Of a DNA stretch of 64,000 nucleotides, positions 1-64,000 are shown in pieces (position 1 is the first letter of the stretch; each line of letters begins with the position of its first letter). Under the pieces are notes generated by a model that was not told where the DNA came from, ran no database searches, and worked only from the letters and a program-made list of their open reading frames with translations. Location of the stretch: NCBI GenBank assembly GCA_029288775.1, contig JARIGQ010000006.1, positions 64,120-128,119 on the forward strand, read 5' to 3'. A program made the position numbers and the translations under genes. The stretch is from Candidatus Nomurabacteria bacterium. Lineage in GTDB: Bacteria > Patescibacteriota > Minisyncoccia > Phycocordibacterales > UBA5272.

Positions 1-21
1 ACCAGGTATACTGGCCTTTAT

Positions 22-789
22 ATGAAAATGCTCACGAAACATGCAAGTAAAGTCCCTGCGGTGACACTTGGATTTTGGATTATTAAAATTTTATGTACCA
101 CCCTTGGTGAAACAGGGGGAGATGCAGTTACGATGACATGGAATTTCGGGTATCTTCTTGGAAGTGTCTTTTTCTTGATGATGCTTATTGTTTTGGTTGT
201 CTTTCAGACCAAGGCAGAAAAGTATCACCCTTGGCTTTACTGGGCAACCATTATTGCATCTACGACCGCAGGCACAACCATGGCAGATTTTTTTGATAGA
301 TCTTTAGGTATTGGTTATACCGGAGGCTCTCTTATTCTTGTGTCTTGTGTGCTTGTCACACTTTTAGTATGGAAATGGGCTGCGGGAACGATCTCCGTCG
401 ATACGGTAACTACACCGAAGGTAGAAATCTTCTATTGGATTGCAATTACCTTTTCTCAGACCCTTGGTACAGCTCTTGGAGATTGGATGGCTGATACAAA
501 TGATTTTGGTTATTTGAAAGCAGCATTAGTATTTGGTGCTGCACTCCTTGTACTTGTTGCTTTATATTATTGGACATCTATTTCTCACGTGTGGCTATTT
601 TGGACGGCGTTTATCCTTACTCGGCCACTTGGAGCCACTATAGGTGATTTTTTGGATAAGCCGATTGCTCACGGCGGCTTAAATATCAGTCGACCTATGG
701 CCTCCCTTGTACTTATGGTTGCAGTGGGGCTGCTTATAGCCACTCTACCTCAAAAGGCAACTCAAGCGAGGGTTGGCTACGCAAGTTAA
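22..789 (+). CDS. polytopic membrane protein with internal repeats (GETGGD / LGTALGDW / LGATIGDF)
   Basis: 255-aa ORF, multiple hydrophobic segments, repeated G-D-containing motifs; no recognised catalytic motif. Confidence 0.45.
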   Translation: MKMLTKHASKVPAVTLGFWIIKILCTTLGETGGDAVTMTWNFGYLLGSVFFLMMLIVLVVFQTKAEKYHPWLYWATIIASTTAGTTMADFFDRSLGIGYTGGSLILVSCVLVTLLVWKWAAGTISVDTVTTPKVEIFYWIAITFSQTLGTALGDWMADTNDFGYLKAALVFGAALLVLVALYYWTSISHVWLFWTAFILTRPLGATIGDFLDKPIAHGGLNISRPMASLVLMVAVGLLIATLPQKATQARVGYAS

Positions 790-840
790 AGATACCTCGA
801 AGCTTTTTGAGGTCAAGGTAGCCTTGCTACACTACCTAGT

Positions 841-1503
841 ATGGTACTTTCTCCGTCCGATACTGTATTCGTTGCAACTAAGCACAAAAAAGAACAGATC
901 GTTAAACCGCTTTTTGAGCGGGAATTTGGCTGTCATGTTGATGTACTGGAAATAGATACCGATGCATATGGAACATTTACTGGAGAAAAGAAACGAAGAG
1001 GTGCACAGATGGACATTGCCAAAAAGAAAGCGTTTGATGCAGCACGACGATTTGGTAAGAGATTCGTGCTTGCAAGCGAAGGGTCCTTTTTTCCTGACCC
1101 AAACTCATTCGGATTTCTCATTCTTAATGTTGAAGTTGTAGTCCTTTATGATGCACATGCCGACTACTTTTATATAGGAGAGCATGTGACACATGATGTC
1201 TGTGCAAAGAAATCCGATATACGTTCTTTGAATGATTTTTATACTTTTATAAAAGATATGCCCCAGGACCAGCAATATATTCTTTCCTATCGCACTCTTT
1301 TCCTTCTAGGAAAAAAAGTTTTTATCAAGCATGCATTAGTTCAGCAAGTACCGGAAATACTTACATCATTGCTTTCTAGGCGTGGCGTTATGAATATTGT
1401 CATAGAAACAGATATGCGTGCCCATCGCAATGCGCTTAGGAAGCACGCCATTCAAAAGGCGACCGAAAAACTGATTGAACATCTCCGCACAGTTAGCGCA
1501 TAA
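841..1503 (+). CDS. hypothetical protein
   Basis: 220-aa ORF, host-like AT-rich composition, no motif recognised. Confidence 0.4.
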   Translation: MVLSPSDTVFVATKHKKEQIVKPLFEREFGCHVDVLEIDTDAYGTFTGEKKRRGAQMDIAKKKAFDAARRFGKRFVLASEGSFFPDPNSFGFLILNVEVVVLYDAHADYFYIGEHVTHDVCAKKSDIRSLNDFYTFIKDMPQDQQYILSYRTLFLLGKKVFIKHALVQQVPEILTSLLSRRGVMNIVIETDMRAHRNALRKHAIQKATEKLIEHLRTVSA

Positions 1504-1517
1504 TTCTTTGTTATACT

Positions 1518-1871
1518 TTGTCTATGAACCCGATGTGTCCAACGTGCCATCTCCCCATTCTTCCGGAATATTATTTCTGCCCAAATTGTGGCACTAATCT
1601 TCGTCCTGCTCCGTTACCGATGACCTTCGTTACCCTTTTTTCACTCTATGCGCATAGTCTTATTCTCCCGTTTCTTGCTTTCATTACGATTTCTAAGTGG
1701 AAGGGGAGTATGTATCTCAAATCTGCTGATTCACAGGCTAAACGTGTAGGAATGATAGCTCTTGTCCTTCTCATTCTCTCCACTGTGGGTATGGTTTGGA
1801 GTACGTACGCATTAAGTAAATCACTATCTGCATCTTTAAATGAAACGCTCTCAGGGAGCCTTGATGAATAG
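1518..1871 (+). CDS. zinc-ribbon (CPTC...CPNC) membrane protein
   Basis: N-terminal CxxC-x14-CxxC followed by two hydrophobic helices. Confidence 0.4.
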   Translation: MSMNPMCPTCHLPILPEYYFCPNCGTNLRPAPLPMTFVTLFSLYAHSLILPFLAFITISKWKGSMYLKSADSQAKRVGMIALVLLILSTVGMVWSTYALSKSLSASLNETLSGSLDE

Positions 1872-1945
1872 TGTCACACATGTTCACCTACGCTGTTATT
1901 TAAAATAGGTAGCCTTCAGCTCCCTATAACTTATTCTCTACCATT

Positions 1946-2419
1946 ATGTTCAAATCTTCTTTGTTTATAGGTACAACGGTTGGGTTTCTTGCGCTTGTAG
2001 GGGTCGCTTCCGCTCAGACTATTGGTGCTGATATGCATCTTTCCATGACCACTTCTTCTTACCCTGCAATGGCAACATCTACTCAGGCGAAAATTTCTTG
2101 TGTCGGAACTGCGGTTGCTGCACGAGAAGCTACTCTTCAGTCAGCAATGACTACACATTCTCAAGCGGTAAATGCGGCGTATGCAGCGCGCGCAACTGCT
2201 CTTAGTCATGCCTATGCTGCAACTTCTACAGCAGAAGTTAACGCAGAAGTGAAAACTTCTTGGTCTACTTTTTCTGCTAGCATCAAATCTGCCCAGAAGG
2301 GTTGGCGTACCGCAAAGCAAAACGCATGGAGCACTTTCCGTAGTGCTTCCCACGCCTGCAAGGCACCTGCTTCTATAAGTGATGAAGCAAAGGCTGGTCT
2401 TGAGGTGATTAGTCAATAG
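1946..2419 (+). CDS. secreted Ala/Ser/Thr-rich protein
   Basis: signal-peptide-like N-terminus (FLALVGVASAQ), low-complexity Ala-rich body. Confidence 0.4.
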   Translation: MFKSSLFIGTTVGFLALVGVASAQTIGADMHLSMTTSSYPAMATSTQAKISCVGTAVAAREATLQSAMTTHSQAVNAAYAARATALSHAYAATSTAEVNAEVKTSWSTFSASIKSAQKGWRTAKQNAWSTFRSASHACKAPASISDEAKAGLEVISQ

Positions 2420-2465
2420 ACTTCTTCTCCAGAGAGAAAGTACAAAAGCGCCTCACGGCGCTTTT

Positions 2466-2747
2466 GTGTATACTTTGTATATGAACGAAACTACATGCCA
2501 TCATCTTACTCACATTCAGGATGTCACCCCAAAAACAAAAGGGTGTGAAGAATGTGAAAAAATAGGGGACACTTGGGTAGAACTTCGTTTATGTCTCAGC
2601 TGTGGCCATGTTGGCTGTTGTGATTCTTCTAAAAACAAGCATGCCACAAAACATTTCAAGGCAACCGGGCACCCAATTATGGAATCCTTTGGTGATAATC
2701 CTGGTAAACCGTGGAGATGGTGCTATATAGATGAACAACACGTATAA
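2466..2747 (+). CDS. UBP-type zinc-finger protein
   Basis: CEECEK...CLSCGHVGCCDSSKNKHATKHF...GHP pattern of zf-UBP. Confidence 0.6.
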   Translation: MYTLYMNETTCHHLTHIQDVTPKTKGCEECEKIGDTWVELRLCLSCGHVGCCDSSKNKHATKHFKATGHPIMESFGDNPGKPWRWCYIDEQHV

Positions 2748-2753
2748 ATAGAA

Positions 2754-15363: not shown

Positions 15364-16503
15364 ATGGAATATCCTGGTAAAGGTGCGTTTAGTAAGTCCG
15401 ACTTGCAAGATTTGATTGCCGCAGAGCGGATTAAGACGCTCCCAGGCTTCGAAGGGAAGCATGTTGGGCCTGCGTCGATTGATATTACCGTCTCAAGCGA
15501 GGAGGTATATCAAGTCTCTCAGCTTTTGCGGCCCAGCGGCAAGCGCCGCGAGAAGGTGAGAGACATGCTTAAAAGCTTGGATGCCAAGCGGGTGAGGATG
15601 GGTTCGGTCCTTGGTACTGGTCACAAGTACGTTGCTAAGGCAACCGTAAATGGTAACTTCCCCGCAGGGTTATACGGGTATAGTAATGCCAAGTCCACAA
15701 GTGGGCGCAACATGTGTCTGTGCCGGACGATCGCCGACGAGGTCGAAGGGTTCGATACCCTTGATCGCCGTTGGGAAAATTGGACGGGAGAAATTTGGTT
15801 GACGATTGAACCGTTTGTGTTCCCTATCGTTCTTACGGATAAGGAGTGTTACGCACAAATCCGCATGTTCGACGGAGATACTCGGTTCCATGAGTCCGAC
15901 CTGAAGAAGGAGTTACAAAAACGAGATTTCCTTTTTAAGCAGGACGGGAGCCGGTACAACTTAGGCGAGCTCGAGTTGACAACAGGTGACGGCACGATTT
16001 TTACCACCCTATACGCGAAGGCGGGTAGGTTGGTGGGATTCAAGGCGAAGCGCACGCTTGAGCCGCTCAATCTGACTGCGCGCGGACTTCACCCAGAAAG
16101 CCATTTCATTCCGGTCTATGCCGAAAAGGACCCCACGGATCCTGATGGGGGAATGGTCACGCTTGAGGCAGGGCATTTCTACTTGCTCTCGACCAACGAG
16201 GTTCTTGATGTTCCAGAGCATCTTTGCGCAGAGCTGGTTGCACTCCATCCGCGCCTTGGATTGTTCTTCTCCCATTTTGCTGGGTTCTTCGATCCGGGAT
16301 TTAAGGGAGTACCTACCCTTGAAGTGACACCCATCATCAGGACTACTTTGCGTCACCGTGAGGCCGTCGGGTGCTTCCGTTATGAGCGGATGCGTTCAAA
16401 GACGGAGTCATACGCGGTTGTCGGTAACTACAGTGGGCAAAAGAGAACCACGCTTCCGAAGCAGTTTCATCTGCCCAGAGATTGGCACGATGCCATGGCC
16501 TGA
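15364..16503 (+). CDS. long-form 2'-deoxycytidine 5'-triphosphate deaminase-like protein (PF06559-like, dUTPase-fold C-terminus)
   Basis: C-terminal HFAGFFDPGFKGVPTLEV matches the HYAGFFDPGF signature of long DCD proteins; 52-55% GC; AGAGAGGG SD 5 nt before the ATG at 15364. Confidence 0.55.
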   Translation: MEYPGKGAFSKSDLQDLIAAERIKTLPGFEGKHVGPASIDITVSSEEVYQVSQLLRPSGKRREKVRDMLKSLDAKRVRMGSVLGTGHKYVAKATVNGNFPAGLYGYSNAKSTSGRNMCLCRTIADEVEGFDTLDRRWENWTGEIWLTIEPFVFPIVLTDKECYAQIRMFDGDTRFHESDLKKELQKRDFLFKQDGSRYNLGELELTTGDGTIFTTLYAKAGRLVGFKAKRTLEPLNLTARGLHPESHFIPVYAEKDPTDPDGGMVTLEAGHFYLLSTNEVLDVPEHLCAELVALHPRLGLFFSHFAGFFDPGFKGVPTLEVTPIIRTTLRHREAVGCFRYERMRSKTESYAVVGNYSGQKRTTLPKQFHLPRDWHDAMA

Positions 16504-16556: not shown

Positions 16557-16976
16557 ATGAAATTGAAAGTGAAAAGATTACATCCACAGGCTAAACTTCC
16601 TACACGTGCACACCATGATGATGGAGGTTTAGATATTTATTGTTGTGAAGAAGTAACGCTTCCTCCACATACTACTGTAAAAATTCCTACAGGCATTGCC
16701 TATGAATTGCCGGTTGGTTATTGTGCATTTGCATGGGATAAGTCTTCTATTGGCGCGAAAGGATTAAAAACACTTGGAGGCGTATTGGATGCGGGATACC
16801 GCGGGGAATTATTCATCCCGATGAGAAATCTCACTAATGAAAGTTACACGTTTGAAGCAGGACATAAAATCGCACAGATGGTAATTCAAAAAGTAGAACT
16901 CTGGGAGGTAGAAGAAGCGCACGAACTTTCTGAAACCGCTCGCGGAGAAGGAGGATTTGGAAGTACAGGGAAGTAA
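16557..16976 (+). CDS. dut: dUTP diphosphatase
   Basis: GVLDAGYRGEL and RGEGGFGSTGK motifs; AT-rich host-like composition. Confidence 0.85.
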   Translation: MKLKVKRLHPQAKLPTRAHHDDGGLDIYCCEEVTLPPHTTVKIPTGIAYELPVGYCAFAWDKSSIGAKGLKTLGGVLDAGYRGELFIPMRNLTNESYTFEAGHKIAQMVIQKVELWEVEEAHELSETARGEGGFGSTGK

Positions 16977-17471: not shown

Positions 17472-18533
17472 TCAGTCTTCGAGTGAAAGGATGAATTCGA
17501 CCATCTCCTGGTCACCACGGCAGCCCACGAGGAGTTGCTCCTTGGAGACCAGCTTGGTGAAGTCTCCTTCGTTGGGGATGGTTTTTCGCAGCTGGGTCCA
17601 GACGCGGGAGTAATTCCCCCACGAACCGTCGGGGTCGCCGTCCTCACGTGGGCGCACCGGGTGCTGCAGGGGAGACATGTGCCCATTCCCTTTCAGGTCT
17701 TGGGCCAGTTCGAGATCCTTCGCGAGTGCCCGGACGCCGTTATGGGTCAGATAGCTGGTCCGCGCGCATTTGCCGGCGGAGGCCCATGCGAGAACTCCTT
17801 CTTTCGGTTCCTCGGCACGGTCTTCCGGACGTATGTACGGAAGGTGCCATTGCCCGATTTGGAGTTCCGTGGGCTTGCTGTTCATCATCGCGTGAGCGAT
17901 GACGATGCCGAAGTCGTTGGCTTCAGGTTGCGCGTGTTCGCTGTTGCGGAGGCCGAAGAAGTTTCTCCAGTGCGTAGCAGTCACGATGACCGTGTGGAAC
18001 GAGTAGGGCTCGATCACGCGGTTGGCATGCTGCTTGTGGAGGCCTTGGTCCTGCTCGAACAGGAAGTGGGAGAGTCCGTACTTCCGGACGAGCTCGTCCA
18101 CCTGTTCGCACAACCATGCACCCTTGGCTGCCATGCCAGCTTTCTCGCTTGCTGCCAGGATTTCCTTGTGGCCGCCAGCCAGGTAGAACGCCTGGATGAC
18201 GGCGATGTCCCGGCCGACCAGCCAGTTGGCTACAGCCTTCTTCTGGTCGGAATCCGACAGGGATTCGCCGGCCTGCATCCCGGCCTTGTTGACCCCGAAC
18301 GAGTTGGGGACGTAAGGCCGTTCAAGCACGGCGATCAGCCGCTTGATCGTGGGCATGGCGCGCGAGCTTGCCGAGTTGCGCGAAAAGCGCGTGTGGGTGT
18401 TGAACTCTGCGAGGTAGGGTCGAGGAAACTCGACTTCCACCGAGCAGATTCGCGATCCGCGAAAAATGCTGTCGCAAATCATCTTTGCGGTGGCGCTTAC
18501 CTCGCGGTAAACGGACGGCGGGGTATAATCCAT
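17472..18533 (-). CDS. unknown 353-aa protein of the GC-rich deoxynucleotide island
   Basis: about 60% GC; AAGGAGAT SD 5 nt upstream; own terminator. The opposite-strand 345-aa ORF is an R/V/G-rich shadow. No TS, ThyX, radical-SAM or MTase motifs recognised. Confidence 0.5.
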   Translation of the reverse strand: MDYTPPSVYREVSATAKMICDSIFRGSRICSVEVEFPRPYLAEFNTHTRFSRNSASSRAMPTIKRLIAVLERPYVPNSFGVNKAGMQAGESLSDSDQKKAVANWLVGRDIAVIQAFYLAGGHKEILAASEKAGMAAKGAWLCEQVDELVRKYGLSHFLFEQDQGLHKQHANRVIEPYSFHTVIVTATHWRNFFGLRNSEHAQPEANDFGIVIAHAMMNSKPTELQIGQWHLPYIRPEDRAEEPKEGVLAWASAGKCARTSYLTHNGVRALAKDLELAQDLKGNGHMSPLQHPVRPREDGDPDGSWGNYSRVWTQLRKTIPNEGDFTKLVSKEQLLVGCRGDQEMVEFILSLED

Positions 18534-18738: not shown

Positions 18739-19437
18739 ATGGCCAAGGCTATTATTGCGATCGAAGGGTCTGACGGCGCCGGCAAGGAGACGCAGGCGGG
18801 ACTGCTTATGAAGTTCCTCCAGTCGCAGGGATATACCGTGGGGACGGAATCATTTCCCCGTTACAACAAATCGGTCGGCGGTATCTTTTTGTATGATGCC
18901 CTTAAGGGACCGGAGAAGGAGAAGTACGCCTTCTCGAAGCTTGATCCATATGACGCGAGCAAGCCCTACGCCATGGATCGTTCGGAGTCCCGCGGCATCA
19001 TCGAAGATCTCGTCGCGAAGCACGATGTGGTTGTCTTCGATCGTTACGTTGAGTCGAACTTGCTCCACCAAGGGGGCAAGCTCGCTACACCTGAAGAGCG
19101 TGTAGAATACGCGAATTGGTTGTTCCGGGAAGAATACGAAGGCAAGCGCGGTATCCCGCGCCCTGACTTCGTGATCTACCTCAAGATCCCGTTCTGGCTT
19201 TCGCGCGCCCGTGCGGAGCGGCGGTCGGCAAACGGCGGCCCCGCACTTGATGCGGTCGAGTCCGACATGGATTACGTGCGTAAGGGCCACGAAGGCGGCA
19301 TCTTCTATGCCGAGCATTTCGGTTGGGAAGTAGTGGAAGGCTTGGAGGACAAGCGCGAGCTCACCCCGGATGAAGTTCACCAGAAGGTGATCCGCCAGAT
19401 TACCCCTCGTCTTCTCGAAAAAGGGATCGAGATCTGA
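18739..19437 (+). CDS. thymidylate-kinase-like P-loop kinase (P-loop present, TREPGGT motif absent)
   Basis: IIAIEGSDGAGKETQ P-loop, DRYVESNLLHQGG (DRY/lid-like); GAGGAGAG SD before the ATG at 18739. Confidence 0.6.
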   Translation: MAKAIIAIEGSDGAGKETQAGLLMKFLQSQGYTVGTESFPRYNKSVGGIFLYDALKGPEKEKYAFSKLDPYDASKPYAMDRSESRGIIEDLVAKHDVVVFDRYVESNLLHQGGKLATPEERVEYANWLFREEYEGKRGIPRPDFVIYLKIPFWLSRARAERRSANGGPALDAVESDMDYVRKGHEGGIFYAEHFGWEVVEGLEDKRELTPDEVHQKVIRQITPRLLEKGIEI

Positions 19438-19557: not shown

Positions 19558-20127
19558 ATGAAGGGCAAGTTCATCGTCTTTGGCGGGGTGAAGTCCCCCT
19601 GGCCCACCATCGAGGTGGTTCAGGAACACGTTCGTTCGAGCGGTGTCGAAACCGTGATCACCAGAGAACCTGGAGGTACGCCCTTTGCGGAGAATATCCG
19701 CAAGCTCCTCCTGGAAGGTGATCATGGTGGCGATTACGGAATCGTGCGAAGCCTCACTCGTGCTGCGCGTATCGAACATGAGCGCAAGGTTGTGGAACCG
19801 GCGCTCGAGCGGGGAGAGCATGTGCTCTGCGATTCCACCGACTATACCAAGTTCCACGAATGGGACACGGTCGTTTCCGAGCAGAGCTTGATCCATTCAG
19901 GTTTCGATCGCGAATGGTTGGTTGGCAAACCGACAATGCTCATCCTGTTCACTCCCTCCGAGATGGATCCGCGGCTCAGGACCATCTTCAACAATGTGGG
20001 GTACACGATGAACACAGGATTCATTTCCTGGGAGACTCTTGTGTACTACGTGGATCCCGGCGACATCCATTCGGTGGAAACGATGTTGGAAGCCTTGAAG
20101 GACCATCTTGCTTTCGAAATCGCCTGA
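19558..20127 (+). CDS. thymidylate-kinase-like protein with degenerate P-loop (TREPGGT present)
   Basis: ITREPGGTPFAENIRKLL dTMP-binding motif but FGGVKSPWPT in place of the G-x-x-G-x-GK-S/T P-loop; AAGGAGAAG SD before the ATG at 19558. Confidence 0.5.
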   Translation: MKGKFIVFGGVKSPWPTIEVVQEHVRSSGVETVITREPGGTPFAENIRKLLLEGDHGGDYGIVRSLTRAARIEHERKVVEPALERGEHVLCDSTDYTKFHEWDTVVSEQSLIHSGFDREWLVGKPTMLILFTPSEMDPRLRTIFNNVGYTMNTGFISWETLVYYVDPGDIHSVETMLEALKDHLAFEIA

Positions 20128-20203
20128 TCACTTCTTGGCCACAGCCCCGCTTGCGCGGGGCTGTTTTCTTTTTAATACTCAGCAAATAAGGTAGTATAGA
20201 TGC

Positions 20204-21904
20204 ATGAATTCCTATTCGGTTATCTATGAGGCGCTTGTAGACCTCTGCAAAAAACAGGGACTTATTGCCTCGTTTTCGCTTGATCAGCCCGACTTGGCGG
20301 AGCATGGTGATTATGCGACCAATATCGCTTTTACGCTTTCTAAATCACTCGGCAAATCTCCAAAAGAAACTGCAGACACCATTGCCATAGAGTTAGCAGC
20401 TTCACTTGAAGACACAATTGAAAAGATAGAGGTTGCTGGCCCTGGATTCATTAATTTCTTTTTGAAGGACGATGTTCGTACGGATGAAGCCGAAGCAGTT
20501 GCGGTAAGCGATATAGTAAATGAGAAAGGAAAAGGGAGCGTGCTTGTGGAATATACCGATCCAAATTGCTTCAAGGTATTTCATATCGGCCACTTGATGG
20601 CAAATACAATTGGTGAAGCAATAGCACGGCTCTATGAAGCAAGTGGGTATGACGTCCTGCGTGTATGTTATCCCTCCGATATTGGGTTAAACGTTGCCAA
20701 GGGTGTGTGGGGTGTTATGCAATTAGCCTCCGAAAAGCCCGATGAAAGTGCTTCGCTTAAAGAAAAAGTTGCTTTCTTAGGGAAAGCTTACGCGTATGCT
20801 CATCAAAAGTATGAAGAAAGCGAAGAAAATAAGCAGGCGATTGTAGAGGTGAACAAAGCTATCTATGCCGGAAACGACGCACAAGTAATGGGGGTGTATG
20901 CGGAAGGTCGGGCGCTTTCTTTGGAATATTTTGAAACCCTGTACGCAATGCTTGGAACAAAGTTTGATGCATACGTATATGAATCTGAAGTTGCAGATCC
21001 AGGAAAGGTGATTGTGAAAGCGTACATGGGAAGCATTTTTGAAGAATCTGAAGGAGCAATTGTATATAAAGGGGAGCAAGACGGATTACATACCAGAGTG
21101 TTTATTAATTCTGTGGGACTCCCTACATATGAGACCAAAGATATTGGCAACTACGAAAGGAAACTTTCTCTTCTTCCAAATGCGGATAGATATGTGGTAG
21201 TAACCGCCCAGGAGCAGGCCGAATATTTTAAGGTGATCAACAAAGTGGAAGAAAAACTCCACCCTGAGCTTACCGGAAAGCTGGTGCATATTAGTCATGG
21301 CATGATGCGTCTTGCATCCGGTAAAATGTCATCCCGAACAGGGAACGTAATTGGTGGGGAAGATTTGATTGATAAGATCAAGGAAGTGCTTTCTGCGCGA
21401 TTGGAAGATATGAAGGTAGAGGAAATAGATAAACCAAAACTTCTCAACGATATTGCAGTTGGTGCAGTGAAGTTTTCCATACTTAAGCAAGCACCGGGAA
21501 AAGATACGGTATTTGATTTTGAAAAATCTATCTCGTTTGAGGGGGACTCCGGTCCGTATTTGCAGTATACGCACGCTCGTATATGTGCGCTCTTGGATCG
21601 GGCGGAGGAGGTGGGGATTGATATTGAAAGCTATGCAATAGAACATCCAGAACGAGAACTTGAACAGGTAATCATTGGTTATAATCAAGCACTTGAAAAG
21701 GCATGTACGGAACTTGCCCCTCAATCAATTTTGCAACATCTTCTTAAGCTTACGCGCGCATTTAATAATATGTACGGCCGCGAGCAGATCATTCGCGATG
21801 ATAAGGAATTAAGTGCGTATTATATGATGCTTACGCAAGCGACAAAAAACATTTTAGGTCACGGACTTTCGACGCTTGGTATTGTGGCTCCGGAGAGGAT
21901 GTGA
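20204..21904 (+). CDS. argS: arginine--tRNA ligase
   Basis: 566 aa, HIGH-region FHIGHLMANTIGEAI and C-terminal DALR anticodon-binding region. Confidence 0.9.
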   Translation: MNSYSVIYEALVDLCKKQGLIASFSLDQPDLAEHGDYATNIAFTLSKSLGKSPKETADTIAIELAASLEDTIEKIEVAGPGFINFFLKDDVRTDEAEAVAVSDIVNEKGKGSVLVEYTDPNCFKVFHIGHLMANTIGEAIARLYEASGYDVLRVCYPSDIGLNVAKGVWGVMQLASEKPDESASLKEKVAFLGKAYAYAHQKYEESEENKQAIVEVNKAIYAGNDAQVMGVYAEGRALSLEYFETLYAMLGTKFDAYVYESEVADPGKVIVKAYMGSIFEESEGAIVYKGEQDGLHTRVFINSVGLPTYETKDIGNYERKLSLLPNADRYVVVTAQEQAEYFKVINKVEEKLHPELTGKLVHISHGMMRLASGKMSSRTGNVIGGEDLIDKIKEVLSARLEDMKVEEIDKPKLLNDIAVGAVKFSILKQAPGKDTVFDFEKSISFEGDSGPYLQYTHARICALLDRAEEVGIDIESYAIEHPERELEQVIIGYNQALEKACTELAPQSILQHLLKLTRAFNNMYGREQIIRDDKELSAYYMMLTQATKNILGHGLSTLGIVAPERM

Positions 21905-36181: not shown

Positions 36182-36199
36182 GATGGTATACTTTTTAGC

Positions 36200-39774: not shown

Positions 39775-39888
39775 AATGGTTTATTGATTAGGAATTAGTA
39801 GGTTAATACTACCAAATTAAGAGGTAGAAGACAACAAGGTGGGTGAGGTGTCAAAAAAACAGCGCCCTGCGGCGCTGTTGCTTCAACC

Positions 39889-40185
39889 TCAATCCTTGGT
39901 GTAGCTCGGAGGGTCGGTATTCTTCTCCGGCCAATGAACGGTGTAGCCGCGTTCTTTCCACCACTTTTCCGCAATAGGAGTGATGTAAGTGTCCCACTGC
40001 CGAACGAGGCCATACACCCTTTGTTTATCCACCTCGCGCATTACTTCGAAGCAGTCTGGGTGGTTACGCATGTTATTGTTTCTTATCCACTCCAATCGAA
40101 GCTGTTCGGCGTACTCTCTCCATTCTCGATCGTGCTGACGGAATTCGGCTTCCTGTGTTTGCTGCGTGGAGGCTTCAGTTTTCAT
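39889..40185 (-). CDS. GC-rich small hypothetical protein next to the ssrA 3' end
   Basis: 98 aa, about 55% GC, AAGGAGTT SD 6 nt upstream, own terminator at 39852-39882. Confidence 0.4.
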   Translation of the reverse strand: MKTEASTQQTQEAEFRQHDREWREYAEQLRLEWIRNNNMRNHPDCFEVMREVDKQRVYGLVRQWDTYITPIAEKWWKERGYTVHWPEKNTDPPSYTKD

Positions 40186-40299
40186 CGCTTAACTCCTTAT
40201 CTTAATCTGGAAGCACTCTAGTTCTTTTGATGGCGATTGTCAAAAGCTGCCTTTCGATTTCTCCACAAATGAAAAAACTCCCGCGGGAGTTTTTTCATT

Positions 40300-43066: not shown

Positions 43067-43107
43067 AAAGAAAGGCCGCCGTGAGGCGGTCTTTTGCTGC
43101 GGCGGGC

Positions 43108-43335
43108 TTACGTCGCAGCGTTCACGAAGCCGATGGCCTGGACAGTGGTCAACGACCGGGACTGCATGCTCCAGTTGCATGCCTGCGGCAGATTGGCAGC
43201 AGGGTTGTGCCAGTGGCCGGCACAGGAGTTCTGGGTGATCTTCCCTTTCGAGGGACAGCGGTCGTTGTTGATCTTCTTGTGGCAGTCGCTGTGGCCAGGG
43301 ACGCAGTTGCATTCCCGGAGTTTTCTTTCGTCCAT
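43108..43335 (-). CDS. GC-rich cysteine/histidine-rich small protein
   Basis: 75 aa with 7 Cys and 5 His (CNCVPGHSDCHKK...CPSKG...CAGHWHNP...C), about 60% GC, AGAGGAGT SD. Confidence 0.35.
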   Translation of the reverse strand: MDERKLRECNCVPGHSDCHKKINNDRCPSKGKITQNSCAGHWHNPAANLPQACNWSMQSRSLTTVQAIGFVNAAT

Positions 43336-43461
43336 CTGGGGACTCCTCTACTGTTAGTTTAAGAACAGAGGTTTATGATACCTCCATTTTCTATCCTACG
43401 ACTTTGAAAGTTTTCTGTAAAGATGTCATACGCACTCTTTTTTGTTATAGTTTGTAGCAAT

Positions 43462-48314: not shown

Positions 48315-48980
48315 TCAATTGCTAAAGGCCCTGATCAGTCGGATGTCTTCATCAGCAGCGCGCGTACCGGCGCGCACCGTGATTGCATTTCCGGTCGTCG
48401 GTTGATAGATGGCCGCAGTCCTGGTTTCGTTCGAAGAACCCAGGCCGGCGTACACCCAGCTGCCGTCCGAGAGTTGAACCCCGGTCGTTCCGGCAATTAC
48501 GACGCCATTCACTGTGATCGTCACTGATTCACCGAAGTTGAAATCGGTTTCGGGTCGTGTTGTTCCCTTGAAATCGAGAAACTTGTTGGTGCTTGGGTCG
48601 AGCCGGACGTCCACCATCTGGTTTGTAGTGATCGAAGTGCATTTTATCTGGCGCGTACCGTCATCCAGTACGGTGTTGTCCTTGAGGGTTCCGCAGTTGA
48701 TGAACGGTCGGGTACCAGCGAAGCTGGTACCGTTCACGACAGGGGTGTAATCCCCCGGCGTTTTCCCCAGCCTGTACAAATACCCCCCAGTCCAAATCCC
48801 GTAGACGACCTCCTTGTATTTCGCCACGGGCACCTGGGCGGTGGAGTTGGATGTCGTGTCCGTCGTGGCAGATGCCGTTGACGGTGTCGATGCTGAGGGC
48901 GCGGAACCTCCGCCACCTCCGCCGCATGCAGCGAGGGCTAGAGCGGCTGTCGCCGCCAAAATCACGAGGATGTTCCTCAC
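48315..48980 (-). CDS. GC-rich lipoprotein (GTG start) inserted into the 5' end of a host gene
   Basis: lipobox LALAAC-GGGGGG; GAAGGAGAT SD 5 nt before the GTG at 48980; about 58% GC; the upstream in-frame AT-rich 45 codons reaching 49115 are paralogous to the N-terminus of 49160..49732. Confidence 0.5.
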   Translation of the reverse strand: MRNILVILAATAALALAACGGGGGGSAPSASTPSTASATTDTTSNSTAQVPVAKYKEVVYGIWTGGYLYRLGKTPGDYTPVVNGTSFAGTRPFINCGTLKDNTVLDDGTRQIKCTSITTNQMVDVRLDPSTNKFLDFKGTTRPETDFNFGESVTITVNGVVIAGTTGVQLSDGSWVYAGLGSSNETRTAAIYQPTTGNAITVRAGTRAADEDIRLIRAFSN

Positions 48981-49159
48981 GAGTATCTCCTTCTGCCCGA
49001 GAGGGCGGTTGGTGTGAAAATGCGAATGAGGGTGTCCAGTTTTCTTTTGGTCTTGCAACCAAAAACCAAAAGGACTACCTTTTATTATTTTGCGCCATTT
49101 TTTTGACTTTGTCAATTTTTCTAATAATTATGTAAAGACACTGAAAATGGTATGTCAGT

Positions 49160-52415: not shown

Positions 52416-52524
52416 AGGTCTATTGACTTTTTATTAATAGTATGCTATATTTCAGATGGTATGTTTGGGCAATTCCGCCCGTTTCGTCAACCGGCGCATT
52501 AAGCGCCACAACCAGGAGTGTGTC

Positions 52525-53004
52525 ATGATTTCTCGCATGTTGTCCCTGATCGTGGCGTGCGCTTTCGCGTGCGTCTCCGCTTTCGCTCAGTCAGGCGAAG
52601 ACACCAAGGCCTCCGGCGCCGCACCCGCTTCGGTGGAAACAACGGTGAACAAGAACCCGCTGCCGATCGTAAGCACCTATTACATGAGTTCAGGTGCGAG
52701 AACTGGGGTGGACATCCGAATTTCTCCCATTCCCAACGCAGAAGGTGTTCCGAAGGCGAAGCTCTACATGGGTGGAGCAACATGGATCCGTTGCCTTTAC
52801 GGCGAAAAAGAAGTCACAGCAAGAGAGGAGGGCGATAAGTTCATCCTCCAAACCGAAGGTGGCTACCCTGCCAACCTTTCTGGTAACGAAAGTTACTGTC
52901 GTGGATTGACTGTGAAGGTCACGCTTCCCCGAGGGGGTGGACTTTCCGTTATCGATTTTACTTCGACGGAAGGGGGAGGTTCTCGTGCTACCTTCCGTTA
53001 CTGA
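52525..53004 (+). CDS. GC-rich secreted protein
   Basis: signal peptide MISRMLSLIVACAFACVSAFAQ; about 57% GC; CAGGAGTG SD; terminator at 53014-53045. Confidence 0.45.
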   Translation: MISRMLSLIVACAFACVSAFAQSGEDTKASGAAPASVETTVNKNPLPIVSTYYMSSGARTGVDIRISPIPNAEGVPKAKLYMGGATWIRCLYGEKEVTAREEGDKFILQTEGGYPANLSGNESYCRGLTVKVTLPRGGGLSVIDFTSTEGGGSRATFRY

Positions 53005-53045
53005 ACAGGGGTTCCTGTGAAAAAAGCCACGTTCGCGTGGCTTTT

Positions 53046-53291
53046 TTAATCCCCAGTAGGACCATCTCCTGCAGCCCCTGCATCTCCACCTACACCAGTT
53101 CCCGAGTCTGCACCAGATACACCGCCTTCAGTTCCTCCTCCTGTATTGGTATCTGTTACAGGGACATCAGCGTGCGCTTGTTCTATAGCGGTATTCCCTC
53201 GTGTTTGTAATATAAAACCAAGCACTCCCAACATGCCAAGCAATGTAAGCTTATAAATGCTTTTTATTGCTGAAGTAGTCTTTTTCGCCAT
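53046..53291 (-). CDS. small membrane-anchored Gly-rich protein
   Basis: 81 aa: TM followed by a GG(T/S/D)G-rich tail. Confidence 0.35.
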   Translation of the reverse strand: MAKKTTSAIKSIYKLTLLGMLGVLGFILQTRGNTAIEQAHADVPVTDTNTGGGTEGGVSGADSGTGVGGDAGAAGDGPTGD

Positions 53292-57089: not shown

Positions 57090-57146
57090 CAAATAATGCT
57101 GTATTTGTGTGCCCGGATATTTTTCGTGGTTTGCTATACTTAAATT

Positions 57147-57704
57147 ATGTTAGACAATACGGCACTTGTTCAGTCGGCTAATTATTGGTTTGCAACAATC
57201 GCTCTCATTGGGCTTGCGTTTGTGGCAATTTGGATCGTGGATCTTTTTTTTGGCGCACTTTGGATGCCGAATTGGAAAAAAAGAATGTACGCGGGATTTG
57301 AGAATTTTGTATTACCTTTTGGGTTTTTCATTTCACTTTTTGCAACGCTTGGGTCGCTGTACTACCAATTCCATCTTGGTATTCAGCCGTGCGAACTATG
57401 CTGGTTTGCGCGTATTTTCATCTACCCGCAAGTCTTTATCTTTGGTATGGCGTGGTACAAAAATGATCGCCGTATCTTTGATTATCTGATGATGCTTTCT
57501 GTGTTTGGAATTATCATCGGCCTCTATCATCATTTTCTTCAAATGGGGTATGATTTGTATAAGCCGTGTGGCACAGGACTCTTTGTTGATTGTTCGGTGC
57601 CAACGTTTGTAGAGTATGGGTTCATGACGTATCCGCTTATGGGAGTAGTAACGAACGCGCTTACATTTTTGACGGCGTATTCCGCAAAGAAGTTTCAAAA
57701 GTAA
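57147..57704 (+). CDS. disulfide bond formation protein B (DsbB/BdbC-like)
   Basis: 4 TM with CELCW and CGTG...C cysteine pairs in the two periplasmic loops. Confidence 0.6.
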   Translation: MLDNTALVQSANYWFATIALIGLAFVAIWIVDLFFGALWMPNWKKRMYAGFENFVLPFGFFISLFATLGSLYYQFHLGIQPCELCWFARIFIYPQVFIFGMAWYKNDRRIFDYLMMLSVFGIIIGLYHHFLQMGYDLYKPCGTGLFVDCSVPTFVEYGFMTYPLMGVVTNALTFLTAYSAKKFQK

Positions 57705-57744
57705 TGTGCTAAGATAGTGGGGTCTTGTACAAAGGAGGTGCCCC

Positions 57745-57942
57745 ATGGCCCAGGAAGACGTGACGGAAGACAGGTGCAAGGATTGCGGGTCTGAGTTGGA
57801 CTTCAACGACCCGCATCCGCCGCGGTTCGTGGTTACCAAGAAAGGCTACGTGTGTGGTGACTGCTTGTCCGACGCGATAAGCGACGCCATCGACCAGCAC
57901 CCCATTGGTCGGCCGATGGCCACCAAGGTCAACAACACCTGA
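57745..57942 (+). CDS. GC-rich zinc-ribbon small protein
   Basis: CKDCGSEL...CGDC; about 58% GC; AAGGAGGTG SD; terminator at 57945-57975. Confidence 0.4.
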   Translation: MAQEDVTEDRCKDCGSELDFNDPHPPRFVVTKKGYVCGDCLSDAISDAIDQHPIGRPMATKVNNT

Positions 57943-57974
57943 AAACCGCAAGCCGTCCGGCTTGCGGTTTCTCT

Positions 57975-58613
57975 TTATAGCCCTTTGAGGAGTTCGAGCT
58001 CTTTTTTGGTAAGCGGCTCTTTATAGAGCTCGTTTACAAGCCACAAGCCGCTTTCTTTTATTTTTTCTTTTGGTGAGTATAGTCCAAGCCATTTCGAGGA
58101 GGGGGTACATATCTTACAGTGTGATACGGTGGAAATGATTTTGGATTCCAATAAGAGACGTTTGTCTTTATCATCAACTTGAATCACAGCAAAGAAAAAG
58201 TTCTTCTGCATATAGTCGGATATTTCTTTCTCAATGTGTTGTTGTTTTCCTTGGTCTACTTTGTGTCCGTGGGTATCGCGGGCAATCTTGGTTGTCATAT
58301 CCATTTCCCATATAGCAAGGTAGGGATCACGACCTTTGTTGAGGAGACAGCGCCCGATATTTTTTCGAAAGATACTGCGATCCTTGTTGGAGTTTAGAAA
58401 ATGCTGACGCAAACGCGAACGAAGCTGATTGTTACCTGTGTGCGTGCCTATGCGGACGATGCGATTACTTCCATGACCTGTCTCGCCCTTTTCAAATAAA
58501 ATATAGATGCCGTTTTCGGGAATGTTAGATTCATCATAAGGAAAGTGAAAGAGGGGAAGGGTGTTGGTCCACGAGGTAAGGTCCGTGCAAAGATTAGAAT
58601 AAGGTTTGTTCAT
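57975..58613 (-). CDS. GIY-YIG nuclease superfamily protein
   Basis: GIYILFEKGE-x10-RIVRIGTHTG...LRSRLRQH matches GIY-x10/11-YIG...R...H/E. Confidence 0.55.
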   Translation of the reverse strand: MNKPYSNLCTDLTSWTNTLPLFHFPYDESNIPENGIYILFEKGETGHGSNRIVRIGTHTGNNQLRSRLRQHFLNSNKDRSIFRKNIGRCLLNKGRDPYLAIWEMDMTTKIARDTHGHKVDQGKQQHIEKEISDYMQKNFFFAVIQVDDKDKRLLLESKIISTVSHCKICTPSSKWLGLYSPKEKIKESGLWLVNELYKEPLTKKELELLKGL

Positions 58614-59853: not shown

Positions 59854-60044
59854 TAGGGGTCTTCGCGAGCTTCAGGGTAACTTGTAGCAAACGGAGAATT
59901 TCAGTAGTAAATTGTCAAAGCAAGAGCAGCTGCGGAAGATAGATCAGAAAACTCTCAAATGTTTCTGATTACAAACGTCTTCTGATGACGCTGCAAACAT
60001 TACACACATTGTGCATTTTTGTTTTTCTTTTGTCACACTCTATT

Positions 60045-61592
<1,548 letters not shown>

Positions 61593-61820
61593 TGAAATCG
61601 GTCAACATACCTATTTAATAGGGTGTATGATTCTTGTCGAACTATTGTTTTCAATAGAGGAATTGATAGTGATCCTTAACACTATCCGCGTTACAGCGAA
61701 AGGTAACACAAGTCGCGCAAGCGCTAGAGTGTGACAAAAGAAAGATGTGAAATCTCAATGTGTGTAATGTAATGAAATAGCCCCGATCGCTACGCGATCG
61801 GGGCTTCTCCGTTTTCGGAT

Positions 61821-62234
61821 TCATGCCTGCTTCTTCCAGGGTGGGGGAGGGGCAATTGATTCCCCGGTGCGATCAGCTGGTTGCTTTTTGAAGAGTAGGT
61901 TGTTATTGCGCAACCGCTGGCCGTTTCCGCGAAAGAGCATCCATACCCGGCTTGGCGGTTTGTACCACAAGAGGCAGCCACAACTTTCCGCCAGACGTTT
62001 CTCGATCACAACTTCGGCGACCGCCCATTTGAGATCCAGTGTCGCTTCCTCTTTTGTTTGGAGGATGTGTGAACCCTGGGTGAATGGGAGATTGTGTGCC
62101 GAAAGGGTGTGGGCCATCGCTTGAAGCTGATCCACGTTGCCGGCAACTGCCCAGCTTGAGAGGCGACGCCTTTTCTGCTGTTCGGTTTCAGTGCGTTCCA
62201 CGGAGTATCTCCTTTTAATGAACGGATGTCTCAT
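61821..62234 (-). CDS. GC-rich hypothetical protein inside the 16S-tRNA-Ile spacer
   Basis: 137 aa, about 55% GC, terminator at 61788-61815. Confidence 0.35.
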   Translation of the reverse strand: MRHPFIKRRYSVERTETEQQKRRRLSSWAVAGNVDQLQAMAHTLSAHNLPFTQGSHILQTKEEATLDLKWAVAEVVIEKRLAESCGCLLWYKPPSRVWMLFRGNGQRLRNNNLLFKKQPADRTGESIAPPPPWKKQA

Positions 62235-62325
62235 TTTCCCTTATGGAGTAAGCTTTTGCAAGGTATTGACTTTTATATAAAAACGTGATATATTATATTA
62301 GTACCCATAACGGAGGAGTTCCTTC

Positions 62326-62568
62326 ATGAACCACCATTTTTCGAAAACGATGACGATCGGTGGAACCGACCGCCATCGCATGAACGCGATGGACTTCGGT
62401 CGCCCGGTGCCGGCCGGCAAGAAGCAGGCCGATTGGTCTGGGGTCATCATTGCAGGAGGGGTCATCCTCTTCCTCGTGGTCCTGGCTCTGCCGACGGTTT
62501 CGGAATCGTTCCGGCAACATACCGGCATCACGGGCTGGGTGGAATCCCTGCGGAATCTCTTCCGCTAA
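62326..62568 (+). CDS. GC-rich small membrane protein inside the rRNA spacer
   Basis: 80 aa with one TM; ACGGAGGAG SD 8 nt before the ATG; promoter TTGACT...; terminator at 62588-62622. Confidence 0.4.
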   Translation: MNHHFSKTMTIGGTDRHRMNAMDFGRPVPAGKKQADWSGVIIAGGVILFLVVLALPTVSESFRQHTGITGWVESLRNLFR

Positions 62569-62670
62569 TCCATCCCGGACCTTCAACCAAGCCTGCCTGC
62601 GCTTACGCGCGGCAGGCTTTTTCATTTGGTATTTTTGTGGTAGTATTGTGCTTACGTTTCAAATAATCAT

Positions 62671-62743
62671 GCGCGAATAGCTCAGCTGGTAGAGCACTCG
62701 ACTGATACTCGAGCGGTCCCAAGTTCGAATCTTGGTTCGCGCA
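62671..62743 (+). tRNA. tRNA-Ile (anticodon GAU)
   Basis: acceptor GCGCGAA/TTCGCGC, anticodon loop cTGATAc, T-loop TTCGAAT; usual 16S-23S spacer tRNA. Confidence 0.85.
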
Positions 62744-62796
62744 CATGGAAACAAAAAGACGGGCAACTAATTGAGCGCGTCTTTTTGTTTTTACTT

Positions 62797-62934
62797 ATGA
62801 ACCAAGATTCGAACGGGGAAAGGGGTCGGGAAAACGGATAAAGTTTTCCCGTGGCGGAAGAATGGAAACCGAGGGGTTTCCAAACCGAAATGAGTGATAA
62901 CGAATGGAGGTTGTGAGATTCTTGGTTCGCGCAC
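62797..62934. repeat. tRNA-Ile 3'-end-derived repeats: inverted copy (62797-62812) and direct copy (62917-62934) enclosing about 105 nt
   Basis: GAACCAAGATTCGAAC is the reverse complement of the tRNA T-arm/acceptor; GATTCTTGGTTCGCGCAC repeats tRNA positions 62727-62744. Confidence 0.45.
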
Positions 62935-62997
62935 CAATAGACAAAACCACTCGCATCTTGTAGAGTGGTTTTGTTCTTTGTCCTTGAGGGGGTTTCT

Positions 62998-63309
62998 ATG
63001 GATGGTTACAGAATTGCCGGAAAGGGGGATCTTCCCGACATCCTACATCGCTTGAAGTCGGGAGATCACAAAGGTGTCTTGGTGCGGTCGCTGTATCGTT
63101 CCGACACTGAACCGTATGCACTCCTCGAACTTTGTCGGGGACCTTTTACGCTTCAGGAGGGTATTCTTTCCGGATTTGCCAATAATGGGGAGCATGCATT
63201 GCTTCGCATTGCAGATAGTTCGCTGTCTCACGTGGAAATTAAGTTGGGCAACGAAGAGTGGTTTGGGCCGGAGCTCAGTTCGATCGTTCTTCTCATTCCC
63301 GCGAAGTAA
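62998..63309 (+). CDS. hypothetical protein (moderately GC-rich)
   Basis: 104 aa; GAGGGGGT SD; terminator at 63312-63340. Confidence 0.35.
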   Translation: MDGYRIAGKGDLPDILHRLKSGDHKGVLVRSLYRSDTEPYALLELCRGPFTLQEGILSGFANNGEHALLRIADSSLSHVEIKLGNEEWFGPELSSIVLLIPAK

Positions 63310-63346
63310 CCGCACGCAAAACCGCGTGCGGTTTTGTTTTTGAATA

Positions 63347-63375
63347 TTGACAAATAAATTTTAATATGTTACAAT
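63347..63375 (+). promoter_or_regulatory. promoter TTGACA-17-TACAAT (TG-extended)
   Basis: TTGACA at 63347-63352, TGTTACAAT at 63367-63375, 28 nt before the ATG at 63404. Confidence 0.5.
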
Positions 63376-63403
63376 GTATTTGTTCTTTTTTACGGAGATT
63401 TCC

Positions 63404-63613
63404 ATGTCTCACACAAAATCATTTGGCCACCGTTGCGCGGTCGTGCTTGCTTTCGTGATGTTCATCAGCATCATGGCGCAGCCTGCGCGAGACCTGTGGG
63501 TTTCGTACCAGGTCGCTTTCGCGGAAGATCCCGCTTTCATGTGGTTCTTCATGGAAGGCGGTATCACCATGACGATCTTCATTTACCTCCTTTGGCCACG
63601 AAGGACTCGTTAA
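63404..63613 (+). CDS. GC-rich small membrane protein
   Basis: 69 aa, two hydrophobic helices; ACGGAGAT SD; flanked by near-identical terminators (63312-63340 and 63622-63656). Confidence 0.4.
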   Translation: MSHTKSFGHRCAVVLAFVMFISIMAQPARDLWVSYQVAFAEDPAFMWFFMEGGITMTIFIYLLWPRRTR

Positions 63614-63719
63614 GTCTGAACCGACCGCATGCAAAACCGCGTGCGGTTTTGTTTTTATAATACGTCGTTTGTGTTTAGTGCTGTTGCTTTCTCTTTTATG
63701 GAGCATACACTTAGGGTGT

Positions 63720-64000
63720 ATGGACACAACAATCAATTATTGGGCAGTGCTAGGAGGGGCTATCTTTTTATTCATAATGGGAATGATTTGGTATGGGCCA
63801 TTGTTTGGCAAGCTTTGGAGAAAGATTGTAGGTGCTGAACATATGAGCAAAGAGGAAATGGCGAAGATGCAAAAGGAGATGATGCCTATGTATCTTATGA
63901 CCATTGTGCTTGGTTTTATTACAAGCTATGTTTTGTATACGTTCGTACATATGTCGGGCATGGGAATTTCTATGGGATTCTGGATTTGGCTTGGCTTTCA
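63720..64000 (+). CDS. DUF1761-family membrane protein (3'-partial, runs off the window)
   Basis: MDTTINYWAVLGGAIFLFIMGMIWYGPLFGKLWRKIVG... typical DUF1761 N-terminus. Confidence 0.5.
   Translation, partial: MDTTINYWAVLGGAIFLFIMGMIWYGPLFGKLWRKIVGAEHMSKEEMAKMQKEMMPMYLMTIVLGFITSYVLYTFVHMSGMGISMGFWIWLGF

Follow-up and report, generated by a model that had tools for sequence, protein, structure and literature searches.

A 64,000-nucleotide stretch of Candidatus Nomurabacteria contig JARIGQ010000006.1 (the window, by which we mean that whole stretch) contains two classes of protein-coding genes, which differ in composition and in the signals before their start codons, and a 16S rRNA gene without an anti-Shine-Dalgarno (anti-SD) sequence. 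The host genes are AT-rich and apparently leaderless, whereas a minority of GC-rich open reading frames (ORFs) carry a GGAG-type Shine-Dalgarno (SD)-like motif. On balance we favor, with slightly better than even confidence, the reading that these ORFs are leadered cassettes resembling phage morons, drawn from a flexible gene pool and settling in recurrent slots of an anti-SD-less, mostly leaderless lineage. The conservation of GGAG at orthologous genes in genomes that lack the anti-SD is the unexplained core of this arrangement and its most interesting point.

The overall GC content of the window is 44.4%. Its closest relatives by ArgS, SecD and other proteins are 64-85% identical and come from metagenome-assembled genomes. 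Where ArgS, SecD and ThyX relatives are named they are Paceibacterota, Nomurabacteria, Kaiserbacteria or Parcubacteria, and several other relatives carry the depositor label 'uncultured Candidatus Saccharibacteria'. The window thus belongs to the Parcubacteria/Paceibacterota of the candidate phyla radiation (CPR), as a Nomurabacteria-like genome of an anti-SD-less clade. Loci or contigs of related genomes used for comparison are labeled L with a number.

Two classes of gene start

Thirteen GC-rich ORFs had been listed from the letters of the window (the sequence-only reading), and all 13 exist. Two positions were adjusted: the ORF given as 43108(-) spans 43108-43335, and the one given as 48315(-) most likely starts at a GTG at 48980. 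Scanned in 200-nt windows, GC reaches 53% or more in islets at 15351-16550, 17401-20150, 43051-43350, 48301-49100, 52451-53200, 57701-58050, 61751-62650 and 63401-63650. GC content at third codon positions (GC3) was 0.52-0.80 (median 0.67) in the 13 islet ORFs and 0.26-0.50 (median 0.39) in 57 host genes, a complete separation (Mann-Whitney U = 741 = 13x57, p = 2e-8). Of the 13 islet ORFs, 12 have GGAG or GAGG, the purine-rich motif of canonical SD-led genes, 4-9 nt ahead of the start codon; none of the 57 host genes does (Fisher p = 1e-12). Within islets the background frequency of these tetramers is 5% of all positions (binomial tail 3e-15), and hybridisation energy to the canonical anti-SD gave the same split between islet and host genes. 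Four starts were chosen partly by motif (18739, 52525 and 63404, not the first ATG, and the GTG at 48980), and the enrichment is far beyond chance even with several candidate starts allowed per ORF. The claim that every GC-rich ORF has an SD needs one correction, as the ORF at 61821-62234(-) has only AAGGGA. A terminator-like hairpin follows all 13 islet ORFs, as had been described; host genes also have hairpins, so terminators do not separate the two classes.

A further GC-rich ORF, absent from the original list, lies upstream of rpsF at 32424-32804(+); it encodes 126 aa with a GC3 of 0.55, is preceded by a weak AAAGGG and has no match in Pfam. Two other interpretations of the islets were rejected. 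GGAG is not a -10-like element of an alternative promoter, given that clear -35/-10 promoters lie 25-65 nt further upstream. Nor are the GC-rich stretches near the rRNA, tmRNA and tRNA genes themselves RNA genes: the only RNA genes that Rfam recognises in the window are the 16S, the tmRNA and two tRNAs, and the ORFs come with promoters and SD motifs, with terminators, and with signal peptides or transmembrane (TM) segments.

As for host genes, ORFs of at least 60 aa have a box of the form TA[TC]A[AC]T 6-9 nt ahead of the ATG in 25 cases, and at no other distance up to 39 nt in more than 2. When a match at five of six positions was required, a -10 box ended 5-10 nt upstream of 25/58 host genes and 0/13 islet genes, compared with 3/58 and 2/58 at control offsets and 4.6% of all ATGs. 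This bears out the host style described earlier, a TATAAT-like box close to the ATG without GGAGG. Weaker variants of the box (TAGTAT, TAGAAT) occupy the same place at argS, ftsH, nusG, secE and secD, and motif enrichment in relatives also yielded these variants. Host promoters lack a -35 box, 24 of 25 matching TTGACA at no more than three of six positions, and 13 of the 25 have an extended TG. Host genes therefore show the two marks of leaderless genes, a -10 placed for transcription to start at the start codon and no SD. With the box 6-9 nt ahead of the ATG, transcripts should start at the start codon or right beside it. Native genes would accordingly be predicted as leaderless mRNAs, expressed from a promoter without a -35 and often with an extended -10 (TGnTATACT). 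Two host-style examples are:

57127..57149, +: dsbB; TGCTATACT, then 6 nt, then ATG; no -35 box
20184..20206, +: argS; GGTAGTATAGATGC, then ATG; conserved in 9 genomes

A 16S rRNA without an anti-SD

The sequence-only reading overlooked the loss of the anti-SD from the window's own 16S rRNA, a loss that changes the meaning of the SD motifs.

60042..61592, +: 16S rRNA, full-length; Rfam SSU match, 1325 bits

The 3' tail of this gene (61580-61592) reads GAUUAAUUCAAUG and does not contain CCUCC, the partner of canonical SD-led genes. In the Rfam alignment GGAUUAAUUCAAUG stands opposite the consensus GGAUCACCUCCUUU, within the wider consensus stretch GGAUcACCUCCUUu. We searched the window, the 16S and its trailer for a displaced anti-SD in the form of CACCTCCT or CCTCC, and found nothing at or after the 3' end. 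Four relatives (L026, L027, L029 and L030) also carry an anti-SD-less 16S on the same contig as the genes compared, and the GC contents of these four contigs are 37%, 41%, 49% and 49%. Unless the genome has another rRNA copy or the mature 3' end is unusual, a ribosome without CCUCC means that GGAG cannot act by canonical pairing, and without that pairing the cassette mRNAs would have to load the 30S subunit on their leaders in an SD-independent manner. A motif complementary to the new tail UUAAUUCAAU was not enriched upstream of 220 genes (48 near vs 42 far).

The 16S gene is bracketed by a 46-nt inverted repeat (59997-60042 and 61725-61770), presumably the 16S processing stem, whose 3' arm lies ~133 nt beyond helix 45. 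Between helix 45 and this arm, the trailer (61593-61724) folds into hairpins conserved in L029 and L030. One of these presents an AUCCUU(U)AA loop, and three of its base pairs are changed on both sides and still paired among the window, L029 and L030; it is absent from L027 and L026, in which the whole trailer is missing. Should the mature 16S end at ...GGAUUAAUUC, there would be no hidden anti-SD; should the ~130-nt trailer with the AUCCUU-loop hairpin be kept in the mature 16S, this would support a relocated anti-SD. No 23S rRNA gene was found within 2.4 kb after the 16S (61593-64000), and the rRNA operon appears to be unlinked or interrupted.

Loss of the anti-SD has been described in a subgroup of Parcubacteria that overlaps the group lacking uL1 (PMC9297842; Tsurumaki et al. 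2022, RNA 28:1041). The passages of that paper located by term search report the rRNA loss only, with nothing on mRNA start signals or on SD-like motifs kept on a subset of genes; the word 'leaderless' is absent from the paper, and the SD sequence is mentioned in passing only. The window resembles that group in a 16S end without CCUCCU and in its Parcubacteria affiliation, and differs from what those passages describe in its predicted leaderless starts and in the SD-like motifs on a gene subset. Directly after rplK, the window and more than ten relatives have dcd or thyX and never rplA, an order that would fit the uL1-lacking group, within a view limited to 64 kb here. Our literature search found no paper tying leaderless genes to Parcubacteria.

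Cassettes, slots and their possible origin

The largest islet, between rplK and argS (15.3-20.2 kb), is a thymidylate-pathway (deoxythymidine triphosphate, dTTP) module that encodes Dcd, dUTPase, an unknown ORF, a ThyX-like protein, Tmk and a degenerate Tmk-like protein:

15364..16503, +: dCTP deaminase (Dcd); Pfam DCD, DCD_N and DCD_C; GC3 0.59; SD-like AGAGGG; leadered
16513-16534: dcd terminator
16557..16976, +: dUTPase (dut); Pfam dUTPase; host style, with GC3 0.28 and TACACT 6 nt before the ATG
17433-17456: thyX terminator
17472..18533, -: ThyX-like (phage-type) thymidylate synthase; GC3 0.76; AAGGAG 5 nt before the ATG
18739..19437, +: thymidylate kinase (tmk); Pfam Thymidylate_kin; GC3 0.69; SD-like GAGGAG; terminator 19449-19475
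19558..20127, +: second, divergent Tmk-like gene; GC3 0.68; SD-like AAGGAG; terminator 20141-20164

The ThyX-like ORF matches phrog_85, the phage thymidylate synthase family (2.5e-41). It scores 24.4 bits against Pfam Thy1 (PF02511), below the gathering cutoff of 24.8; many of its homologues carry PF02511, and the window protein is a divergent relative of ThyX. The window protein also matches 1034 phage records (N4-like phage thymidylate synthases) at no more than 37% identity, and among the best 120 homologues listed (83-47% identity) those that are named are Parcubacteria, Kaiserbacteria, Zambryskibacteria or Paceibacterota. The second Tmk-like gene, directly after tmk, matches Pfam Thymidylate_kin (7.8e-10) in its N-terminal half only, and its P-loop region reads GGVKSPWPT; it may be an inactive paralogue. 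Among the relatives' loci its sole match was in L025, to the ordinary tmk (35% identity).

The order rplK, then dcd, dut, thyA or thyX, folA and tmk, then argS and ileS is kept throughout the family and also in a relative of 53% GC. The dTTP genes occupy this rplK-argS slot in more than ten relatives, and the module is therefore not a fresh insertion. The class of start is stable for each gene. Across relatives dut, always AT-rich, and argS are always leaderless (for dut, a leaderless-type promoter in 8/8 orthologues compared), and dcd, thyX or thyA, folA and tmk have an SD-like motif in nearly every genome compared. The motif is kept at 5/5 thyX and 7/7 thyA orthologues, where the flanks are unconserved and a -10-like box lies ~45 nt upstream, and it is also present at the AT-rich thyA of L014 (GC3 0.38). 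In AT-rich L022 and L023 the dTTP genes are GC-richer than their neighbours (GC3 0.46-0.65 vs about 0.30-0.40), and in GC-rich L025 and L026 they have no GC excess. Identities are mosaic: the window thyX is 83% identical to the L022 copy, yet ArgS only 37%, and the window dcd is closest among the relatives' loci to that of L012 (72%), which carries thyA and not thyX.

Several other features of these loci deserve mention. ArgS (20204-21904), by its low identity to the L022 copy, and MetG (29130-30596), at 31-32% identity to the L023 and L005 copies, look like replacements by distant gene versions; the genes neighbouring them are mostly 50-94% identical to relatives. The dcd 5' leaders of L002, L008, L012, L013 and L023 contain a small hairpin, GCCCC-GAAA-GGG (with variants), followed by AGTTC. 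Located ~30-45 nt upstream of the ATG and upstream of the SD-like motif, it may be a conserved regulatory leader element. In the GC-rich relative L025, genes of a diversity-generating retroelement (bAvd and reverse transcriptase, 1372-2605) lie ~6 kb from secE-nusG-rplK.

At family level (379 ORFs on family-level loci, called by a simple ORF-based procedure), a strong 5-mer SD was found before 9.8% of starts versus 1.3% of all ATGs. SD-class genes had a higher GC3 than the rest (p = 2e-8), many of them with little excess; an L029 ORF at 19114-19566 is GGAG-led though its GC3 is 0.21. With such AT-rich copies, the link between SD motif and high GC fails outside the window. The L029/L030 pair at 19114/19616 has kept motif and spacing although its flanks have diverged, and one orthologue pair (L029 12897-13490, L030 12911-13438) switches class.

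These patterns bear on a tentative alternative, that GGAG is a working translation signal read by something besides the canonical 16S tail, which would provide a leadered, regulated route beside the leaderless one. We likewise regard it as possible, short of probable, that the motif is under selection and read by a non-canonical partner: the 16S 3' extension with its AUCCUU-loop hairpin, another rRNA site, or a protein. Conservation of the motif with a 5-8 nt spacing at thyX, thyA, tmk, dcd and the L029/L030 pair amid diverging flanks, together with the stability of class at dut and argS, is what such a signal would leave behind, and the both-side pair changes of the trailer hairpin offer a weak lead. 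However, no reader of the motif was identified, the hairpin is missing from L027 and L026 although both carry GGAG genes, the new tail has no enriched complement upstream of genes, one orthologue pair switches class, and frequent exchange could maintain the motif as well.

The remaining islets are small cassettes. In most, a leader of ~25-65 nt follows a promoter made up of TTGACA or TTGACT, 17 nt of spacer and a -10 box. They are listed here with the RNA genes beside them:

39858..40243, -: cassette between infC and tmRNA; promoter TTGACA-17-TAGAGT 40215-40243; AAGGAG; 98-aa ORF 39889-40185; terminator 39858-39879
40299-40686, -: tmRNA (Rfam)
43076..43421, -: cassette between ftsH and tRNA-Ile(TAT); promoter 43393-43421; AGAGGAG; terminator 43076-43089
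43108-43335, -: Cys/His-rich ORF of that cassette, 75 aa, GC3 0.80
43462-43535: tRNA-Ile(TAT); 986-1059 in L027
48261..49115, -: lipoprotein cassette; promoter 49087-49115; GAAGGAGAT; GTG start 48980; hairpin 48261-48300
52423..53047, +: cassette; promoter TTGACT-17-TATATT 52423-52451; CAGGAG; hairpin ~53021-53047
52525-53004, +: signal-peptide ORF of that cassette, 159 aa
57719..57970, +: cassette after dsbB; -10 TAAGAT; AAGGAGG; terminator 57943-57970
57745-57942, +: CxxC...CxxC ORF of that cassette, 65 aa, GC3 0.80
61779..62612: GC-rich segment in the 16S-tRNA-Ile(GAT) spacer; two ORFs, terminators at both ends
61821-62234, -: spacer ORF, 137 aa, no good SD
62326-62568, +: spacer ORF, 80 aa, one TM helix; promoter TTGACT-17-TATATT; ACGGAGGAG
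62671-62744, +: tRNA-Ile(GAT)
62727-62745 and 62917-62935, +: direct repeat of the tRNA-Ile(GAT) 3' end; looks like an att-like scar before variable cargo
62938..63333, +: cassette; promoter TAGACA-17-TAGAGT; leader with TTTGTTCTTT; GAGGGGG; 103-aa ORF 62998-63309; terminator 63308-63333
63347..63648, +: cassette; promoter TTGACA-17-TACAAT; leader with TTTGTTCTTT; ACGGAG; terminator 63623-63648
63404-63613, +: membrane ORF of that cassette, 69 aa

Two of the products are small membrane proteins, one is a lipoprotein and one a signal-peptide protein; another is a CxxC protein, a further one is rich in Cys and His, and three ORFs show no recognisable feature. Searches of Pfam and PHROGs for donors of the small ORFs gave nothing, and the 98-aa ORF between infC and tmRNA had no Pfam, PHROG or phage match (the last by tblastn). 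The lipoprotein (221 aa, lipobox LALAAC followed by a Gly run) is an ORFan, a search of 5.8 billion proteins returning itself alone, as did a search of 1.8 billion representatives with the 137-aa spacer ORF. Several positions recur in relatives with different or weakly related content. Between ftsH and tRNA-Ile(TAT), L027, whose SecD is 83% identical to that of the window, has a GC-rich, AGAGGAG-led Cys-rich ORF of weak similarity (33%, E = 0.002), and a GC-rich lipoprotein of L027 shares the AACGGGGGG start. At the position of the 57745 cassette L027 has no gene, and it has cassettes missing from the window. The 16S-tRNA-Ile(GAT) spacer measures 1079 nt in the window, 1227 nt in L029, 1208 nt in L030 and 138 nt in L027, and the spacers of L029 and L030 also hold ORFs, 42% identical to each other.

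Downstream of tRNA-Ile(GAT), the duplicated 3' end is shared by L027, ~190 nt downstream, each repeat copy matching its own tRNA. The direct repeat expected of a tRNA-integrated island is thus present, but the variable cargo follows the second copy rather than lying between the copies, and the islet ORFs have no integrase or recombinase by Pfam or PHROG. Promoter, leader, SD and ORF start of the 62938 cassette align with L027, whereas the products of the two ORFs have no detectable similarity to each other. Two copies of a 33-nt terminator hairpin flank the 63404 cassette (63309-63341 vs 63624-63656, 97% identity), and the leader motif TTTGTTCTTT is common to the 62998 and 63404 cassettes and to the L027 cassette at 17886, which points to duplication or exchange of cassettes along with their signals.

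Two side observations concern the surroundings. A tRNA-Ile gene with anticodon TAT is unusual in bacteria; those of the window and L027 have opposite orientations relative to flanking ftsH and recG. About 700 nt at 35500-36200 hold no convincing ORF and nothing above the Rfam threshold, and contain a 50-nt direct repeat (copies at 35802 and 36063, 80% identical).

The sequence-only reading had interpreted the GC-rich genes as recurrent imports from a high-GC, SD-using donor. Much of its description stands: two signal classes coexist, the GC-rich genes are compositionally foreign, and the region is fluid, as indicated by mosaic identities, content differing from the nearest relative L027 and the duplicated tRNA-Ile 3' end. 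The donor itself is not supported. Repeated recent import of small genes from a distant source of this kind, with SD motifs as undecayed vestiges, would account for a GC3 far above the genome median, for the classical promoter, SD and terminator architecture, for the ORFan status of the tested small ORFs, for content unlike that of L027 at 57.7 kb and in the 16S-tRNA spacer, and for the att-like tRNA repeat. Yet the dTTP genes fill one slot in more than ten relatives, and the named ThyX homologues among those listed are all Parcubacteria. Moreover, the anti-SD-less relatives L026, L027, L029 and L030 carry GGAG-led genes of their own, the motif persists at thyX and thyA where the flanks are not conserved, where the genome has no anti-SD and where the copy is AT-rich, and the GC-rich relatives L025, L026 and L027 are mostly leaderless themselves. 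We consider such import unlikely, and recent arrival from a distant SD-using donor less likely than exchange within the lineage. For the two small ORFs tested, both of them ORFans, there is no nameable donor.

GC-richness could instead have arisen in place, for example by GC-biased gene conversion at recombination hot spots. Slot genes have 51-61% GC irrespective of the GC of the host genome (37-53%), the window thyX has a GC3 above its examined homologues and the mosaic identities indicate recombination, all of which would fit. This account leaves the differing promoter and leader architecture unexplained, there is no direct evidence of biased gene conversion in the group and the same genes show no GC excess in L025 and L026; we find it quite improbable. 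An assembly artefact, with GC-rich fragments of a contaminant fused chimerically into an AT-rich contig, deserves consideration because the source is most likely a metagenome-assembled genome, like all close relatives. The islets, however, are 0.25-2.7 kb long, embedded between host genes, and share bidirectional terminators and promoter regions with them, and assemblies made independently from other samples have these slots occupied as well, which makes an artefact very unlikely.

The reading that we prefer is exchange of cassettes within a flexible pool. A cassette would consist of a promoter of the sigma-70 type (a -10 box, to which most small cassettes add a TTGACA-like -35), a leader of ~25-65 nt, GGAG 5-7 nt before the start, the ORF and an intrinsic terminator. 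Recurrent slots would be rplK-argS, ftsH-tRNA-Ile(TAT), infC-tmRNA, the 16S-tRNA-Ile(GAT) spacer and the region downstream of the duplicated tRNA-Ile 3' end. Some cassettes would carry thymidylate-pathway genes (dcd, thyX-like, tmk), others genes for small, fast-evolving proteins that are secreted, located in the membrane or rich in Cys. The pool, of ~51-61% GC, would be shared among related Parcubacteria, with recombination at the tRNA site or in conserved flanking sequence as the most plausible means of exchange, and GGAG would be either maintained for some function or re-seeded by exchange.

Several points weigh against this reading. When the nine small ORFs and three further ORFs were compared by tblastn with the relatives' loci, including L027-L030, the small ORFs gave no significant match, so that only their positions and signals place them in a shared pool. 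Neither in the islets nor beside them was there an integrase or another mobility gene (Pfam and PHROG on islet ORFs; the rest of the window was not scanned exhaustively). The window thyX, at a GC3 of 0.76, exceeds the four homologues examined at DNA level (0.55-0.65), and transfer from the GC-rich relatives examined therefore does not fully explain its composition. Both the leaderless host starts and the expression of the cassettes are deduced from sequence alone, and the 16S tails compared number five (window, L026, L027, L029 and L030).

Relation to known systems and significance

Leaderless genomes, loss of the anti-SD and moron-like islets are each known, and the combination found here is a variant. 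Deinococcus and Mycobacterium (GeneMarkS-2 'group C') are rich in leaderless genes and keep a functional anti-SD, with SD motifs on leadered genes. The window shares with them a -10 box ~6-8 nt before the ATG, a presumed transcription start there and no SD; here, in contrast, the anti-SD is gone and leadered genes still have GGAG. Bacteroidetes initiate independently of SD and keep an SD at few genes such as rpsU, and their anti-SD is retained but sequestered on the ribosome. Again most genes lack an SD and a small conserved minority has one, but pairing is still possible in Bacteroidetes, whereas the complementary sequence is absent in the present clade. Finally, phage morons and small tRNA-linked islets are autonomous promoter-ORF-terminator units of deviant GC and variable content, located between conserved genes. 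The cassettes are similar in autonomy, deviant GC, variable content and a direct repeat of a tRNA 3' end. They differ in having no prophage or integrase context, in being scattered over the chromosome and in that some slots, such as that of the dTTP module, are ancient and syntenic.

In practical terms, the contrast in start signals is a simple sequence marker for core versus flexible genes in these genomes, and a warning for gene callers that assume one ribosome-binding-site model per genome. Pairing of SD and anti-SD is the textbook mechanism of initiation; the anti-SD is seldom lost, and SD motifs would be expected to disappear with it. In this clade of ultra-small bacteria the loss goes together with mainly leaderless genes, and yet SD-like motifs stand at the same genes across divergent relatives. 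If GGAG is non-functional, its persistence would gauge how intensely a pool of cassettes for thymidylate synthesis and for surface or secreted proteins is exchanged among CPR bacteria. If it is functional, a recognition mechanism not yet known must exist, and a non-canonical reader of GGAG would give these minimal cells a second, regulatable route of initiation beside leaderless translation.

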